Shown here one piece after another: positions 1-3,371 of a stretch of 6,043 nucleotides of DNA (position 1 is the first letter of the stretch; every line of letters begins with the position of its first letter). Both the position numbers and the translations under genes were made by a program. The DNA lies in the IMG/VR virus record IMGVR_UViG_2737471819_000031, positions 1-6,043 of that record, one strand, 5' to 3'. The notes under the pieces are model-generated. The model was not told the DNA's origin, did not search any database, and was given only the letters and a program-made list of their open reading frames with translations. This DNA comes from a virus. Its lineage: Duplodnaviria; Heunggongvirae; Uroviricota; Caudoviricetes.

Positions 1-201
1 ATGACTACGACTATTGATAAAAATCAATGGTGTGGACAATTCAAGCGATGCAATGGATGCAAGCTGCAATCGGAATGCATGGTTAAGCCTGAAGAAATGT
101 TTCCTGTAATGGAAGATGGGAAATATGTCGATAAATGGGCAATACGAACGACGGCAATGATTGCCAGAGAACTTGGTAAACAGAACTACAAGGCTGCCTG
201 A
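1..201 (+). CDS. ral: Ral-like restriction-alleviation protein (66 aa)
   Basis: Complete 201-nt ORF starting at window position 1. The protein (MTTTIDKNQWCGQFKRCNGCKLQSEC...) matches my recollection of phage lambda Ral in sequence and length, has four Cys in the N-terminal third, and lies upstream of a cIII-like gene as in lambda. Identity is from memory and not verified. Confidence 0.55.
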   Translation: MTTTIDKNQWCGQFKRCNGCKLQSECMVKPEEMFPVMEDGKYVDKWAIRTTAMIARELGKQNYKAA

Positions 202-948: not shown

Positions 949-1119
949 ATGCAACAGTTCGCTATTGCAGGGGCGGCATCGGTTCGCCCTTTCAACCCGA
1001 TTTTATCGGTACAGCATTCACGAAAAAACATTTTAACCGGAGCAGACTTTAAACAACCAAGAATGAAAAGTTTGCTCGAAAAGCTTTGGGATATTTTGAA
1101 ACAACAAGGCCGTCCATGA
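949..1119 (+). CDS. cIII: CIII-like protein (56 aa; FtsH-inhibitor family in lambda)
   Basis: Strong SD AAGGAG 6 nt upstream of ATG 949. N-terminus MQQFAIAG resembles lambda CIII MQYAIAG as I recall it; C-terminal SLLEKLWDILKQQG resembles the CIII amphipathic region; size and position fit. The longer six-frame ORF from 844 lacks an SD and spans the terminator at 859..884. Confidence 0.5.
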   Translation: MQQFAIAGAASVRPFNPILSVQHSRKNILTGADFKQPRMKSLLEKLWDILKQQGRP

Positions 1120-1286
1120 GTTTTACAGATAACTGGTCAGACGAAGAATTCATTCGTCAGATGAAAGAATTAATCGGTAGCGAAGGAGATATTCATGTCA
1201 CTTGCAACCACAGTGAAGGAGAGCAAGTTACAGAGACGCATGTACACGCAGCAGGCGTTAATGTATCGCCAGAAGGGAGATCGTGA
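1116..1286 (+). CDS. Hypothetical small acidic protein (56 aa) at the kil position
   Basis: ATG 1116 overlaps the cIII-like stop as ATGA (translational coupling) with a weak AAGG SD 6 nt upstream. Sequence not recognised; 'kil position' is by synteny only. Confidence 0.35.
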   Translation: MSFTDNWSDEEFIRQMKELIGSEGDIHVTCNHSEGEQVTETHVHAAGVNVSPEGRS

Positions 1287-1365
1287 AGGTGTTCGCGTAT
1301 TTTTAAATGCGGCAAAGACTGAAGTATTAAATCAGCGTTATTTACTTGGGTCATGTCCATTCTGA
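1240..1365 (+). CDS. Hypothetical small protein (41 aa, or 34 aa from ATG 1261) just upstream of erf
   Basis: ORF below the six-frame track threshold (MYTQQALMYRQKGDREGVRVFLNAAKTEVLNQRYLLGSCPF). It fills the otherwise non-coding 1287..1375 gap and ends 10 nt before the erf start. It overlaps ORF 1116..1286 in another frame and the SD is weak, so one of the two may be spurious. Confidence 0.3.
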   Translation: MYTQQALMYRQKGDREGVRVFLNAAKTEVLNQRYLLGSCPF

Positions 1366-1375
1366 GAACAATCAT

Positions 1376-1981
1376 ATGAGCAAAGAATTTTACGCAAGAC
1401 TGGCAGCTATTCAGGAGAATCTGAACGCGCCAAAGAACCAATACAACTCATTCGGCAAATATAAATACAGAAGCTGCGAAGACATTCTTGAGGGTGTTAA
1501 GCCGTTACTGAATGGCCTGTTTTTATCAATCAGCGATGAAGTTGTGTTGATTGGTGATCGGTATTACGTGAAAGCCACGGCAACTATTACCGATGGCGAA
1601 AACAGTCATACGGCAACCGCACTAGCACGAGAGGAAGAAAGCAAGAAAGGAATGGATTCTGCACAAGTTACGGGAGCTACAAGCTCTTATGCACGTAAGT
1701 ATTGCCTCAATGGTTTGTTCGGCATTGATGATGCGAAAGATGCAGATACAGACGAGCATAAACATCAGCAGAACGCAGCAGCAAAGCAATCAAAACCATC
1801 ACCTACACCTGAACAGGTTCTAAAAGCATTCACTGACGCAGCAATGCAGAAAAACACCGTAGAAGAGCTTAAACAGGCGTTCGCCAAAGCGTGGAAGATG
1901 CTCGAAGGCACACCGGAGCAGCACAAAGCGCAGGACGTTTACAACATCAGACGAGACGAATTAGAAGGAGCGGCTGCTTAA
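1376..1981 (+). CDS. erf: Erf-family single-strand annealing protein (201 aa)
   Basis: Protein from ATG 1376 begins MSKEFYARLAAIQENLNAPKNQYNSFGKYKYRSCEDILEGVKPLL, which matches the P22 Erf N-terminal domain as I recall it; length is close to P22 Erf (~204 aa). The six-frame ORF starts 30 nt earlier at 1346, but neither start has a strong SD; 1376 is chosen on the homology. Confidence 0.75.
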   Translation: MSKEFYARLAAIQENLNAPKNQYNSFGKYKYRSCEDILEGVKPLLNGLFLSISDEVVLIGDRYYVKATATITDGENSHTATALAREEESKKGMDSAQVTGATSSYARKYCLNGLFGIDDAKDADTDEHKHQQNAAAKQSKPSPTPEQVLKAFTDAAMQKNTVEELKQAFAKAWKMLEGTPEQHKAQDVYNIRRDELEGAAA

Positions 1982-2364
1982 TGGCACATTCGATTACTGT
2001 AAGACTAAACAAGCCCGCAAGAGAGTTTCAGGGCGGGGAAAATATCGGATTCAACATCCGTGCTGGCGTTCAGTATTACGATCGCCAGACAAAAAAGAAA
2101 GAATGGACAAACTACAGCGCCGTTGTATTTGCCAAGCCGGGAGCGCAAGCGGATTACTACCGTAGTGTTCTTGTTGAAGGTGGCATTGTAGAAATTACCG
2201 GAGAAAACATCAGGGTTGATGTTTATCAGGGGCAAAATGGTCAATCAATCACTCTTGAATTACTGAATGCAAAGATTGGATTTGCAACTTCAGGAAACAG
2301 CCAACAGCAGCAAAGTAGCAATCATCAAAATCATCCTGAATATGACGATTCCATCCCATTCTGA
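1981..2364 (+). CDS. ssb: Phage single-stranded DNA-binding protein, SSB-like (127 aa)
   Basis: ATG 1981 overlaps the erf stop (TAATG) with AGGAG upstream. C-terminus ...EYDDSIPF is the acidic SSB tail (E. coli SSB ends DDDIPF). The core EWTNYSAVVFAKPGAQADYYRSVLVEGGIVEITGE parallels the E. coli SSB OB-fold segment [31 protein letters not shown]. A Gln-rich linker precedes the tail. Confidence 0.7.
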   Translation: MAHSITVRLNKPAREFQGGENIGFNIRAGVQYYDRQTKKKEWTNYSAVVFAKPGAQADYYRSVLVEGGIVEITGENIRVDVYQGQNGQSITLELLNAKIGFATSGNSQQQQSSNHQNHPEYDDSIPF

Positions 2365-2859: not shown

Positions 2860-3371
2860 AACAAATGACACTAATTGAGATGGATGGATTTCTGAAAGGT
2901 AAATGCATCCCATGTGATTTAAAGGTTAACGAAACAAATGCTGAATATCTGGTGCGTAAATTTGCTGAAGCGGAGGCCAAGATTTTGGCTCTGTCCGAAG
3001 ACCAACAGAAAGCGATTGAGTCAATTAAGCAGGCTGATGCAGCTGTTAAGTTGGCACACGAGAAGTTTTCGGCGCTGGCGGCGGAGAATGCGGGGCTGAA
3101 GTCTGGCGCTATGGACGAAATCAAGGTTATCAACCGTGGAGGTCAGGCATATTGCGTAAAAGATGGAGTGCAAGTTAATCCCATGTATGCAAGAGGGTGG
3201 AATGACTATCGCGCAAAGTCTCTGCAATCAGACACCCCAGCCACCGATGCTTTCCTGGCTGATGTACGGGCACAGGGGGTAGAGATGTTTGCTGACCATC
3301 TGTTGTGCCCAGACCTTGATGACACTATCCGTGACTTTGCTGCCCAGCTTCGCAAAGGAGTGCGGTCATGA
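2856..3371 (+). CDS. Hypothetical protein with central coiled-coil region (171 aa)
   Basis: ATG 2856 overlaps the upstream stop (ATGA); GGAG 9 nt upstream. Ala/Glu/Lys-rich predicted helical segment ([47 protein letters not shown]). Six-frame start at 2838 is also possible. Confidence 0.5.

Follow-up and report, generated by a model that had tools for sequence, protein, structure and literature searches.

Coding constraint on two overlapping small ORFs between the cIII-type gene and erf of a lambdoid phage

Gene order and the starts of the two small ORFs

The window, the whole stretch of 6043 nucleotides that was analysed, carries a run of five ORFs whose order was read directly from the sequence: a cIII-type gene (949-1119), ORF1 (1116-1286), ORF2 (1195-1365), erf (1376-1981) and an SSB-like gene (1981-2364). 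The features of this region are listed below.

949..1119, plus strand: cIII-type gene, 56 aa; phrog_550 'CIII', E=1e-22; its TGA stop (1117-1119) overlaps the ATG of ORF1
1116..1194, plus strand: constrained part of ORF1, codons 1-26, MSFTDNWSDEEFIRQMKELIGSEGDI; phrog_2123; changes by codon phase 16/10/47; dN/dS 0.2-0.4
1183..1188, plus strand: putative Shine-Dalgarno sequence of ORF2, AAGGAG, 6 nt 5' of ATG 1195 and inside the ORF1 codons S-E-G
1195..1286, plus strand: ORF1 tail, codons 27-56 plus stop, in a frame one base behind that of ORF2; changes 58/24/12; dN/dS 1.0-6.5
1195..1365, plus strand: ORF2, 56 aa, MSLATTVKESKLQRRMYTQQALMYRQKGDREGVRVFLNAAKTEVLNQRYLLGSCPF; phrog_1723; changes by codon phase 24/12/58 and 20/7/56; hairpin in the AF2 model
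1376..1981, plus strand: erf, strand-annealing protein; Pfam ERF PF04404, E=2e-44; start 10 nt after the ORF2 stop
1981..2364, plus strand: SSB-like gene whose product ends ...EYDDSIPF; phrog_44 'single strand DNA binding protein', E=3e-29

The original prediction had placed the two small ORFs between cIII and erf, and the profile matches of the flanking genes (phrog_550 upstream, PF04404 downstream) confirm this position. The cIII-type ORF at 949-1119 gave no match to Pfam Lambda_CIII; it is preceded by AAGGAG 7 nt 5' of ATG 949, and its counterpart is labelled cIII in the annotation of HK542. The SSB-like gene at 1981-2364 had no Pfam match. An Rfam search of the whole window also returned no match, so no RNA element explains the conservation described below. 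The interval had been expected to hold small proteins that could not be named, and two small genes, of families phrog_2123 and phrog_1723, were found there. At the level of genes, it is very likely that both are real, ORF1 by virtue of its head and ORF2 over its full length. Both would belong to the early-left (PL) operon of lambdoid phages, directly ahead of the recombination genes. The module is present in 1110 of 5426 complete E. coli genomes, about a fifth.

ORF1 extends from an ATG at 1116-1118 to a TGA at 1284-1286 (56 codons) and has an ATGA in common with the cIII stop at 1117-1119, exactly as first described. Residues 1-52 aligned to positions 1-52 of the 52-position profile phrog_2123 (E=6.1e-39), a match which places ORF1 in the HK97 gp42.1 / Sf6 gp30 / HK022_42.1 family. 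Copies of gp42.1 of the HK022 type are 94-98% identical to ORF1 and have a like position, the ATGA start and an overlap with the next gene; ORF1 differs from the majority copy in having S rather than N at residue 22, and the remaining copies show a few additional differences. The annotations of HK022 and Sf6 show the same start/stop overlap and the same 3' end running into the gp42-type gene. Here ORF1 lies directly after cIII, as in HK542, whereas in the HK97/Sf6/HK022 type it follows kil.

In 102 of 102 loci the start of the ORF1-type gene shared an ATGA or GTGA with the stop codon of the gene before it, and three different genes occupied that upstream place. An upstream TTG at 1086 was rejected as the ORF1 start, as the upstream sequence varies with the neighbouring gene while the ATGA is constant. 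Translation of ORF1 would be coupled, via the start/stop overlap, to whichever gene precedes it. Indels in ORF1-type sequences were in frame (deletions of 3 nt and 15 nt, and 21-nt repeats). Compact homologues with stops of their own were found at 35 aa in HK140 and SEN22, where no ORF2 is present, and at 36 aa in Buttiauxella, where the stop falls exactly at the ATG of the next gene. In the AF2 model of ORF1 a helix was predicted at residues 9-20, with an overall pLDDT of 59. The functional part would be the first ~26 residues, forming one amphipathic helix with the motif WSDEEFIRQM.

ORF2 had been described as a 41-codon ORF at 1240..1365, overlapping ORF1 by 47 nt and ending 10 nt before erf. 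That frame exists, and the gap to erf is 10 nt, but the start was misplaced. Residues 1-15 encoded upstream of ATG 1240 are kept across the family (M..a.T...S...R), Met16 (ATG 1240) is replaced by L, V, I, S or H in relatives, substitutions from 1203 onwards are synonymous in the ORF2 frame, and a 56-codon form is annotated by RefSeq (WP_000050554.1) and in HK022 and Sf6; ORF2 is therefore best read as 1195-1365, with 56 codons from ATG 1195. ATG 1240 was rejected as a start since Met16 is not conserved and codons 1-15 are under purifying selection. The 'SEGG' codons at the proposed ORF2 Shine-Dalgarno sequence are kept in Enterobacter-type relatives. The ORF1 head is short (26 codons), and its last four to five codons also serve as the ribosome-binding site of ORF2; some of the conservation of the head is therefore not its own.

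Residues 1-56 of ORF2 aligned to positions 3-58 of the 58 in phrog_1723 (E=2.4e-32), a profile that HK620 HkaM also matches (E=3.6e-33), and hhalign gave a probability of 96.5% for ORF2 against the HkaM type. These data indicate that ORF2 belongs to the HK97 gp42 / Sf6 gp29 / HK620 HkaM family. HkaM represents a 62-aa subtype ending S-E-L-P-F, with about 32-36% identity to ORF2, whereas ORF2 is of a 56-aa subtype ending G-S-C-P-F; both lie directly 5' of a strand-annealing gene and both end in Pro-Phe. The search returned 120 protein clusters of the ORF2 family, those named being from Enterobacterales genera, and ORF2 without ORF1 was found in Erwinia, Salmonella, Kluyvera, Serratia and other prophages. 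In loci read to the next gene, the ORF2 family lies 1-12 nt 5' of an Erf, Rad52-type or Sak4/AAA_24 gene, the exception being an inserted HNH gene.

An alignment of 73 ORF2-family sequences showed conservation of A21, R25, G28, L37, E43, N46, F50, L51 and P55-F56, all of which are present in the window except that L replaces F50. The AF2 model (pLDDT 91) has helices at 7-27 and 30-51, with residues 52-56 outside them, and ORF2 is confidently predicted to be a helical hairpin with a short free C-terminal tail. Searched by fold against the PDB, the model matched nothing more specific than helical hairpins of a generic kind (ESCRT-III, rubrerythrin, designed binders), with no hit at E<=0.001. A reading of 'QRYFL' as a beta-clamp-binding motif was dropped, since the HkaM subtype does not keep the Q and these residues fall within helix 2.

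Codon-phase constraint and the nature of the overlap

A first scan of viral sequences gave only near-identical copies, and divergent queries were then used to collect relatives; a narrower alignment query of the genome collection gave 8 loci. Changes at codon positions 1/2/3 were counted by Fitch parsimony on an NJ tree of 59 distinct 250-nt homologues, and dN/dS was calculated by the Nei-Gojobori method for 15 pairs of diverged representatives. Codons 2-26 of ORF1 (1119-1193) showed 16/10/47 changes in the ORF1 frame (chi-square p=9e-8), with dN/dS of 0.2-0.4 in the head against 1-2 in control frames. Within the overlap the changes were distributed 24/12/58 in the ORF2 frame (p=1e-8), the same changes reading 58/24/12 in the ORF1 frame, and dN/dS was 0.15-0.5 in the ORF2 frame against 1.0-6.5 in the ORF1 frame. 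The part of ORF2 downstream of the overlap gave 20/7/56 changes (p=8e-11) and dN/dS of 0.04-0.3. The overlap holds 11 variants among 49 close haplotypes; each lies at an ORF2 third position and is synonymous in ORF2, while 10 of the 11 alter the ORF1 protein, one being Q37stop.

This comparison of codon positions had been proposed with the original prediction and proved decisive. The constrained reading frame switches exactly at 1195, being in the ORF1 phase upstream and only in the ORF2 phase from there on. The prediction had left it that either both ORFs were real or only one was; ORF2 is constrained over its full length, and ORF1 in codons 1-26 but not in its tail, which is an unconstrained, neutrally evolving read-through into ORF2. 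An antisense ORF at 1193-1441 (82 aa) was rejected, as its third positions coincide with the second positions of ORF2, where variation is lowest (12 and 7 changes).

With the ORF2 start at 1195 the overlap in the window is 92 nt. The position of the ORF1 stop is variable among relatives, giving overlaps of 80, 86, 92 or 137 nt, the tail is missing from the 35-36-aa homologues, and its pLDDT in the AF2 model is below 60. When ORF2 was recoded synonymously 20 000 times, the ORF1 frame stretched over 80 nt or more without a stop in 30% of cases and over 92 nt or more in 18%. An overlap of this length is not beyond chance, and what had been called an unusual overlap is an ordinary one. Spurious ORFs of 50-180 aa are also common in the window, so the lengths of ORF1 and ORF2 do not exceed chance either; what does exceed it is the comparative signal, not ORF length or overlap. 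Because the stop of the compact forms is missing from the lineage of the window, the ribosome would read 30 more codons until the first chance stop, and the ORF1 tail may be regarded as evolutionary noise.

Other readings of the locus were weighed against the same data. RefSeq PGAP annotates ORF2 alone, and this could be the only gene, with ORF1 spurious and 1116-1194 kept as an untranslated leader of ORF2 or as its ribosome-binding region. Such a reading would fit the several lineages that carry ORF2 without ORF1, the coincidence of the last codons of the ORF1 head with the ORF2 Shine-Dalgarno sequence, the weak Shine-Dalgarno sequence of ORF1 itself (AAGG) and its poor AF2 model (pLDDT 59). 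It is, however, quite unlikely given the three-base periodicity in the ORF1 phase over 1119-1193 (16/10/47, p=9e-8; dN/dS 0.2-0.4 against 1-2 in other frames), the in-frame indels (3-nt and 15-nt deletions, 21-nt repeats) and the ATGA/GTGA overlap maintained in 102 of 102 loci behind three unrelated upstream genes. It is also at odds with the ORF1 homologues that occur without ORF2 (35 aa, HK140 and SEN22) or stop at the next ATG (36 aa, Buttiauxella).

Conversely, both ORFs could be functional over their full length, the 92-nt overlap then being a dual-coding segment under double constraint. In most relatives, even those with about 64% nucleotide identity, the ORF1 frame does run uninterrupted through the overlap, and every lineage has an acidic or polar tail, the non-overlapping form in HK140 included. 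An open frame of at least 80 nt nevertheless arises by chance in 29-42% of the synonymous recodings, and the acidity of the tail is explained by the purine-rich codons used for the basic N-terminus of ORF2. As the changes in the overlap concentrate at ORF1 first positions (58/24/12; dN/dS 1.0-6.5), the stop moves (overlaps of 80, 86, 92 and 137 nt), a Q37stop haplotype exists and the tails of three lineages are unalignable, dual coding is highly improbable. A programmed +1 ribosomal frameshift in the overlap, yielding an 82-aa ORF1-ORF2 fusion as the functional product, is in turn extremely improbable. ORF2 is in the +1 frame of ORF1, and fusion proteins of 81-82 aa are present in public protein sets, one of them on 36 contigs; the fusions, however, change frame at many positions, as would result from independent single-base indels or sequencing errors. 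Furthermore, ORF2 has a strong Shine-Dalgarno sequence and ATG of its own, several lineages have ORF2 without ORF1, and 58 changes over 25 ORF2 third-position sites in the overlap leave no room for a conserved shift site. The preferred reading remains that of a constrained ORF1 head followed by a full-length ORF2.

Comparison with Kil and Arf

Lambda-type Kil prevents assembly of the FtsZ ring and makes cells filament. Its gene lies directly after cIII with overlapping start and stop codons and its product is a small helical peptide, and in these respects the ORFs resemble it; the original prediction had named kil as one of the genes of this interval in P22-like phages. The Pfam and PHROG Kil profiles (PF06301, phrog_2055/3924) did not match ORF1 or ORF2 at E up to 1, and hhalign gave 3-6% probability for the ORF2 family against lambda-type Kil and 0.1% for ORF1. 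Lambda-type kil was found as a separate third gene between cIII and ORF1 in 68 related loci, including HK022, HK446 and Sf6, and no kil is present in the window or in HK542. Taken together, the profile searches, the hhalign comparisons and the separate kil of the relatives indicate that neither ORF is Kil, contrary to the expectation.

A related possibility is that ORF1, ORF2 or both are Kil-like killing or division-blocking peptides that replace the kil absent from the window. This was considered for the position after cIII with the start/stop overlap, the small helical proteins, the lack of kil in both the window and HK542, and the resemblance of ORF2 'ALMYRQKGD' to Kil 'AVIARFIGD' (hhalign P=0.006-0.014 over 10-15 columns). 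It is very unlikely, since kil coexists with both ORFs in the 68 loci, which argues that they are not substitutes for it; in addition, no Lambda_Kil or PHROG Kil match was obtained at E up to 1, hhalign reached only 3-6%, and the position of ORF2 is fixed beside the annealing-protein gene, not beside cIII. A homology of ORF2 to Kil drawn by eye from 'A..YR..GD' and 'A.IARFIGD' was rejected on the same 3-6% over 10-15 columns.

The expectation of arf in this interval fared better in part. P22 Arf is likewise a small protein encoded in the same interval, with an N-terminal [F/W]SDEEFI motif (WSDEEFI in ORF1) followed by an acidic stretch. Three ORF1-type queries matched the Arf profile phrog_2445 weakly over residues 5-26 (E=0.071, 0.062 and 0.04). 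In hhalign comparisons of ORF1 with Arf the probability was 17-30%; the score of 19.4 (P=5e-4, probability 30%), over only 20 columns, was reached by 0 of 200 column-shuffled controls. The C-terminal half of P22 Arf (NLAAERQNP..W.EFAGYYS) is, however, absent from all ORF1-type sequences, and P22 arf overlaps erf by 4 nt whereas ORF1 is set apart from erf by ORF2. One public record (P0122) names an ORF1 homologue 'accessory recombination function protein', and Arf aids recombination (PMC12315714). ORF1 appears Arf-like at its N-terminus, where it has the motif, but the evidence, with 20 columns and E=0.04-0.07, does not suffice to place it in the Arf family.

The Pro-Phe end, proposed function and annotation

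Across the 73 aligned ORF2-family sequences F56 is invariant and P55 is conserved in at least 90%. The 60/62-aa subfamily ends ...[DE]LPF, while ORF2 of the window ends LLGSCPF and so has no acidic residues ahead of the Pro-Phe, unlike the canonical SSB tip. Known SSB tips are DDDIPF in E. coli and NDYPPF in the SSB of HK620 (PMC5928155). The ORF2 family resembles such tips in having a free tail with a nearly invariant Pro-Phe, preceded by an acidic residue in the 60/62-aa subtype; outside this tail the protein has no relation to SSB, and the likeness is one of sequence ends. At the loci ORF2, the annealing-protein gene and the SSB gene form a cassette.

These observations point, tentatively and with considerable doubt, to a role for ORF1 and ORF2 in the phage recombination module, where both would serve as small accessory proteins or adaptors. 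ORF1 could be an Arf-type cofactor of that module. ORF2 could be a hairpin that binds other proteins by inserting its C-terminal Pro-Phe tip into a partner's pocket; the likeliest pocket would be one of those recognizing the ...IPF end of SSB, whether carried by the phage annealing protein or by DNA-repair enzymes of the host. A more specific version, that the ORF2/HkaM family mimics the SSB C-terminal tip and that the Pro-Phe tail of the hairpin plugs the SSB-tip pocket of genome-maintenance enzymes, is unlikely; its targets might be host ExoI, RecQ, RecO or PriA, or the phage's own annealing protein. In HK620, recombineering with sak4 and ssb alone was as efficient as with the complete module, hkaM included, so HkaM adds nothing in that assay, and it is dispensable for Sak4 oligonucleotide recombineering (PMC5928155). 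There is no correspondence between ORF2 subtype and the kind of annealing protein, a point against a specific partnership of the two. Literature on gp42, gp42.1, HkaM and SSB-tip mimics contained nothing on function beyond PMC5928155 and PMC12315714. Taken as a whole, gene picture and functional inference together, the explanation given here is considered likely.

The feature is real and ordinary, and both genes are already annotated in lambdoid phages. Some records give the gp42-type gene as 41 aa, mislabelled 'gp42.1'. The present analysis settles a recurring ambiguity of annotation, in that the gp42-type gene starts at the upstream ATG; the gp42.1-type gene is real, though it is usually omitted by RefSeq, and their long overlap is not subject to coding constraint in a second frame. 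For the name 'recombinase', which PHROG gives to phrog_2123 and phrog_1723, there is no foundation. Current understanding is unchanged by these results.

If true, mimicry of the SSB tip would tune the access of the annealing protein to SSB-coated DNA and would explain why an ORF2-type gene always precedes the annealing-protein/SSB pair, whatever the annealing family; the Arf-like ORF1 peptide would then be a second, separable cofactor of the module. The fixed position of the HkaM-type gene before three unrelated kinds of annealing protein, together with its invariant Pro-Phe end, offers leads toward Arf-type and HkaM-type roles.

Gene content of the window and the start of ORF2

Judged by its gene content, the window is a segment of a lambdoid early-left (PL) operon, with two small frames, ORF1 and ORF2, between the cIII-type gene and erf.

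Genes identified in the window
1-201: ral (Pfam Ral, E=9e-48)
260-709: ORF of 149 aa (phrog_3054)
949-1119: cIII-type gene, 56 aa (phrog_550 at E=1e-22; no Pfam match)
1116-1286: ORF1, HK97 gp42.1/Sf6 gp30 family (phrog_2123, E=6e-39)
1195-1365: ORF2, HK97 gp42/Sf6 gp29/HK620 HkaM family (phrog_1723, E=2.4e-32)
1376-1981: erf (Pfam ERF, E=2e-44)
1981-2364: SSB-like gene (phrog_44; no Pfam match; C-terminus ...EYDDSIPF)
2388-2684: abc2 (Pfam, E=7e-61)

ORF1 was found as originally predicted, with its ATG at 1116, an ATGA common with the cIII stop, 56 codons and a stop at 1284-1286. The second frame had been predicted as 41 codons (1240-1365) overlapping ORF1 by 47 nt; the frame is present, but it is open from an ATG at 1195, with AAGGAG lying 6 nt upstream (1183-1188). 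This makes ORF2 56 codons long (1195-1365) and its overlap with ORF1 92 nt rather than 47. Its stop lies 10 nt before erf.

Positions 1116-1400 are 98-99% identical to many phages, and of 5426 complete E. coli genomes 1110 contain the stretch. Annotation of both genes dates back to the genome papers of HK97, HK022 and Sf6. Certain NCBI E. coli records hold the shortened 41-aa form of ORF2 (P0014, P0015) that the prediction had chosen, under the label 'putative gp42.1', a name that belongs to ORF1.

Existing annotation of the two genes
HK022 (updated record): ORF1, HK022_42.1, 171 nt, hypothetical; ORF2, HK022_42, 171 nt, hypothetical
Sf6: ORF1, gene 30, 'similar to HK97 gene 42.1'; ORF2, gene 29, 'similar to HK97 gene 42'
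HK542, HK446: one of the two listed, as 'recombinase' (PHROG label); ORF2 not listed
RefSeq E. coli genomes: ORF1 not listed; ORF2, 56-aa form, WP_000050554.1

The 56-aa cIII variant (MQQFAIAGAASVRPF...SLLEKLWDILKQQGRP) was missed by Pfam Lambda_CIII and detected by phrog_550 only; it also occurs in HK542, HK140, SEN22, SPN9CC and phiKp_30. The end of the SSB-like product is a copy of the bacterial SSB tip, and the HK022 counterpart of this gene is labelled only 'likely analog of P22 Abc1'. Between 150 and 1500 there are five terminator-like hairpins (0.9 expected from shuffles), at 190-211, 714-731, 859-876, 897-916 and, weakly, at 1282-1297, the last in ORF2 where ORF1 stops. The other four, which flank ral and the 149-aa ORF ahead of cIII, resemble the annotated tL terminators of HK620. 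The 149-aa ORF has long hydrophobic stretches, no Pfam match and possibly encodes a membrane protein; its position between two hairpins, and between ral and cIII, gives it the look of an inserted accessory ('moron') gene.

Selection on the two frames and the nature of their overlap

Homologues were gathered from phage records, IMG/VR and one-genome-per-species contigs, and 59 distinct 250-nt sequences of canonical geometry were kept, with nucleotide identity to the window down to about 63%. Substitutions were counted by Fitch parsimony on a neighbour-joining tree, with chi-square tests, and dN/dS was calculated by the Nei-Gojobori method for 15 pairs of diverged representatives, in agreement with the parsimony counts.

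Changes at codon positions 1/2/3 and dN/dS, by region and frame
ORF1 head (counts, codons 2-26), ORF1 frame: 16/10/47 (p 9e-8); dN/dS 0.2-0.4
ORF1 head, two control frames: dN/dS 1.0-2.0
Overlap, ORF2 frame: 24/12/58 (p 1e-8); dN/dS 0.15-0.5
Overlap, ORF1 frame: 58/24/12; dN/dS 1.0-6.5
ORF2-only part, ORF2 frame: 20/7/56 (p 8e-11); dN/dS 0.04-0.3

In the overlap the ORF1 frame showed a reversed coding pattern across the 59 sequences. Among 49 near-identical haplotypes, all 11 overlap variants fell at ORF2 third positions and were synonymous in ORF2, while 10 of the 11 altered the ORF1 protein; the haplotype at locus L069 carries Q37stop, giving a 36-aa ORF1 product. Codon-position conservation in each frame had been proposed as a check with the original prediction, and these data together show that position 1195 is exactly where the constrained frame changes from that of ORF1 to that of ORF2.

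ORF1 is a real gene whose tail is meaningless. That its head (codons 1-26, 1116-1194) is a gene is supported by codon periodicity and dN/dS in its own frame, and by indels that all keep the frame: phiKp_30 has lost 15 nt and several contigs 3 nt, and a Salmonella copy carries a 21-nt repeat in triplicate. In all fetched loci the start codon shares bases with the preceding gene's stop, always as ATGA except for one GTGA. This arrangement holds invariantly for three different preceding genes (kil at 68 loci, the 56-aa cIII at 26, another gene at 8), which again argues for a gene, as do homologues without ORF2 or with a clean stop. The form in HK140 and SEN22 has 35 aa (MSFTDNWSDEEFIRQMNKMLNQHKEQEKDDDSDSE) and is followed by a different gene and by RecT or exonuclease VIII. 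Buttiauxella and a related contig (L282, 2894-3004; L283, about 2895-3004) carry a 36-aa form (...WSDEQFVRLMKDMGVPVKLPEPQKEEA) whose stop codon (TGA) overlaps the start (ATG) of an HkaM-type gene of 60 aa, the compact, non-overlapping form of the gene pair.

The tail is unlike between lineages and its stop position shifts. ORF1 of the Sf6 type has 52 aa and overlaps ORF2 by 80 nt, the Enterobacter type 53-54 aa and 86 nt, the HK022 type 56 aa and 92 nt, and one contig 71 aa and 137 nt. The overlap is ordinary, of a length expected by chance: when ORF2 was recoded synonymously 20 000 times, 30% of the recodings left the ORF1 frame open over at least 80 nt and 18% over at least 92 nt. AlphaFold2 predicted a single helix in ORF1 (residues 9-20, pLDDT about 70-79), with the rest disordered.

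Several unusual forms were also seen. ORF1::ORF2 fusions of 81-82 aa occur in public protein sets (P0010, P0012, P0013, P0094, P0098, P0104, P0108 and P0113), with the frame switch at differing points of the overlap, as independent single-base indels would give; any +1 shift within the overlap yields 26+56 = 82 aa. P0098 is present on 36 contigs, so at least one fusion may be a real circulating variant. Of the proteins P0131 and P0149, one is a Salmonella Chester ORF1 copy with an in-frame triple EFIRQMK repeat, on 7 contigs, and the other joins an N antiterminator N-terminus (PF11438) to ORF1 from W7, which implies deletion of everything between N and ORF1. An Sf6-type copy of the enterobacterial phage module on a 3.9-kb contig of an 'Actinomycetes bacterium' MAG (L096, JAFADF010000066.1) is most likely a binning contaminant.

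Relation to kil and arf

The two frames had been placed at the kil/arf position. The kil assignment was wrong: neither ORF1 nor ORF2 matched a Kil profile in Pfam and PHROG searches, hhalign of the ORF2 family profile against that of lambda-type Kil gave 3-6% probability, and kil is a separate gene in relatives. In HK022, HK446 and Sf6 a lambda-type kil of 50 aa sits after cIII and before ORF1, overlapping each of them; kil is absent from HK542 and the window, where cIII joins ORF1 directly.

The arf assignment is at best partly right. The N-termini of P22 Arf (MQHEFSDEEFIALIS...) and ORF1 (MSFTDNWSDEEFIRQM...) share a motif, and three ORF1-type queries gave weak matches to the Arf PHROG (E=0.04-0.07, residues 5-26). 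An ORF1-core alignment compared by hhalign with 24 Arf variants scored 19.4 (P=5e-4, probability 30%, 20 columns), a score reached by 0 of 200 column-shuffled Arf profiles (null 8.3 +/- 2.1, maximum 17.6). However, the remainder of Arf is not common to ORF1, and Arf abuts erf whereas ORF1 does not. The likeness was treated as a shared motif rather than family membership, and possibly reflects distant homology. One public record calls an ORF1 homologue (P0122) 'accessory recombination function protein'.

The ORF2 family and its neighbourhood

ORF2 is a real gene starting at 1195. It stands alone, with no ORF1, in Erwinia phage vB_EhrS_59, Salmonella phage ABTNLsp11242, Kluyvera, Serratia and Yersinia prophages and one group of IMG/VR contigs. 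A profile search recovered 120 protein clusters, those with a named source all from Enterobacterales genera and none with a Pfam domain of its own family. The 62-aa HkaM of HK620 belongs to the same PHROG (E=3.6e-33; hhalign probability against ORF2 96.5%). This gene was called 'arf' by position in the first annotation and later termed an orphan of unknown function (PMC5928155). AlphaFold2 confidently predicted a two-helix hairpin for ORF2 (helices 7-27 and 30-51, mean pLDDT 91) with a C-terminal tail of five residues beyond it; Foldseek against the PDB returned generic hairpins only. Across 73 sequences A21, R25 and F56 are invariant, and conservation reaches at least 90% at T6, S10, R14, G28, L37, E43, N46, F50, L51 and P55.

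The ORF2-type gene ends 1-12 nt before a strand-annealing gene in every locus read to the next gene, apart from those with HNH endonuclease genes. The annealing protein is Erf of several subtypes (PF04404), Rad52-type (PF04098) or a Sak4-type ATPase (PF13479), and ORF2 subtype does not track its type. An SSB gene follows the annealing-protein gene in all loci with enough flank, the window included; P22, in contrast, has Arf and Abc1 and neither ORF2 nor SSB. The HNH genes, the sole breaks seen in this adjacency, are inserted either upstream of erf, after the ORF2-type gene, or downstream of it, ahead of ssb, in certain prophages of Salmonella, Buttiauxella and Pantoea (L012, 979-1449; L282, 3192-3662; L280, 3791-4429).

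The stretch thus holds two small, translationally arranged genes: ORF1, coupled to the gene upstream and functional in a head of roughly 26 residues, and ORF2, which has its own ribosome-binding site inside ORF1 and encodes a helical hairpin that ends in a conserved Pro-Phe. We infer, with low confidence, that both may serve the recombination module in an accessory or adaptor role. The best lead to ORF2 function is its free C-terminal tip, [DE]LPF in the 60/62-aa subtype and G.CPF in the window. SSB proteins have a similar partner-recruiting tip (...IPF or ...PPF), and the ORF2 tip may likewise recruit a partner. Sak4 stimulation requires the last six residues of HK620 SSB (NDYPPF) (PMC5928155). 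Against an adapter or SSB-like role, the window's copy, unlike the 60/62-aa subtype, has no acidic residues ahead of Pro-Phe, and HkaM had no added effect in an oligonucleotide recombineering assay, in which the level of the whole HK620 module, hkaM included, was reached with sak4 and ssb alone (PMC5928155). Both predicted ORFs are real, the start of ORF2 needing correction, and what remains of value is this correction to the annotation together with a lead to HkaM-family function that can be tested.
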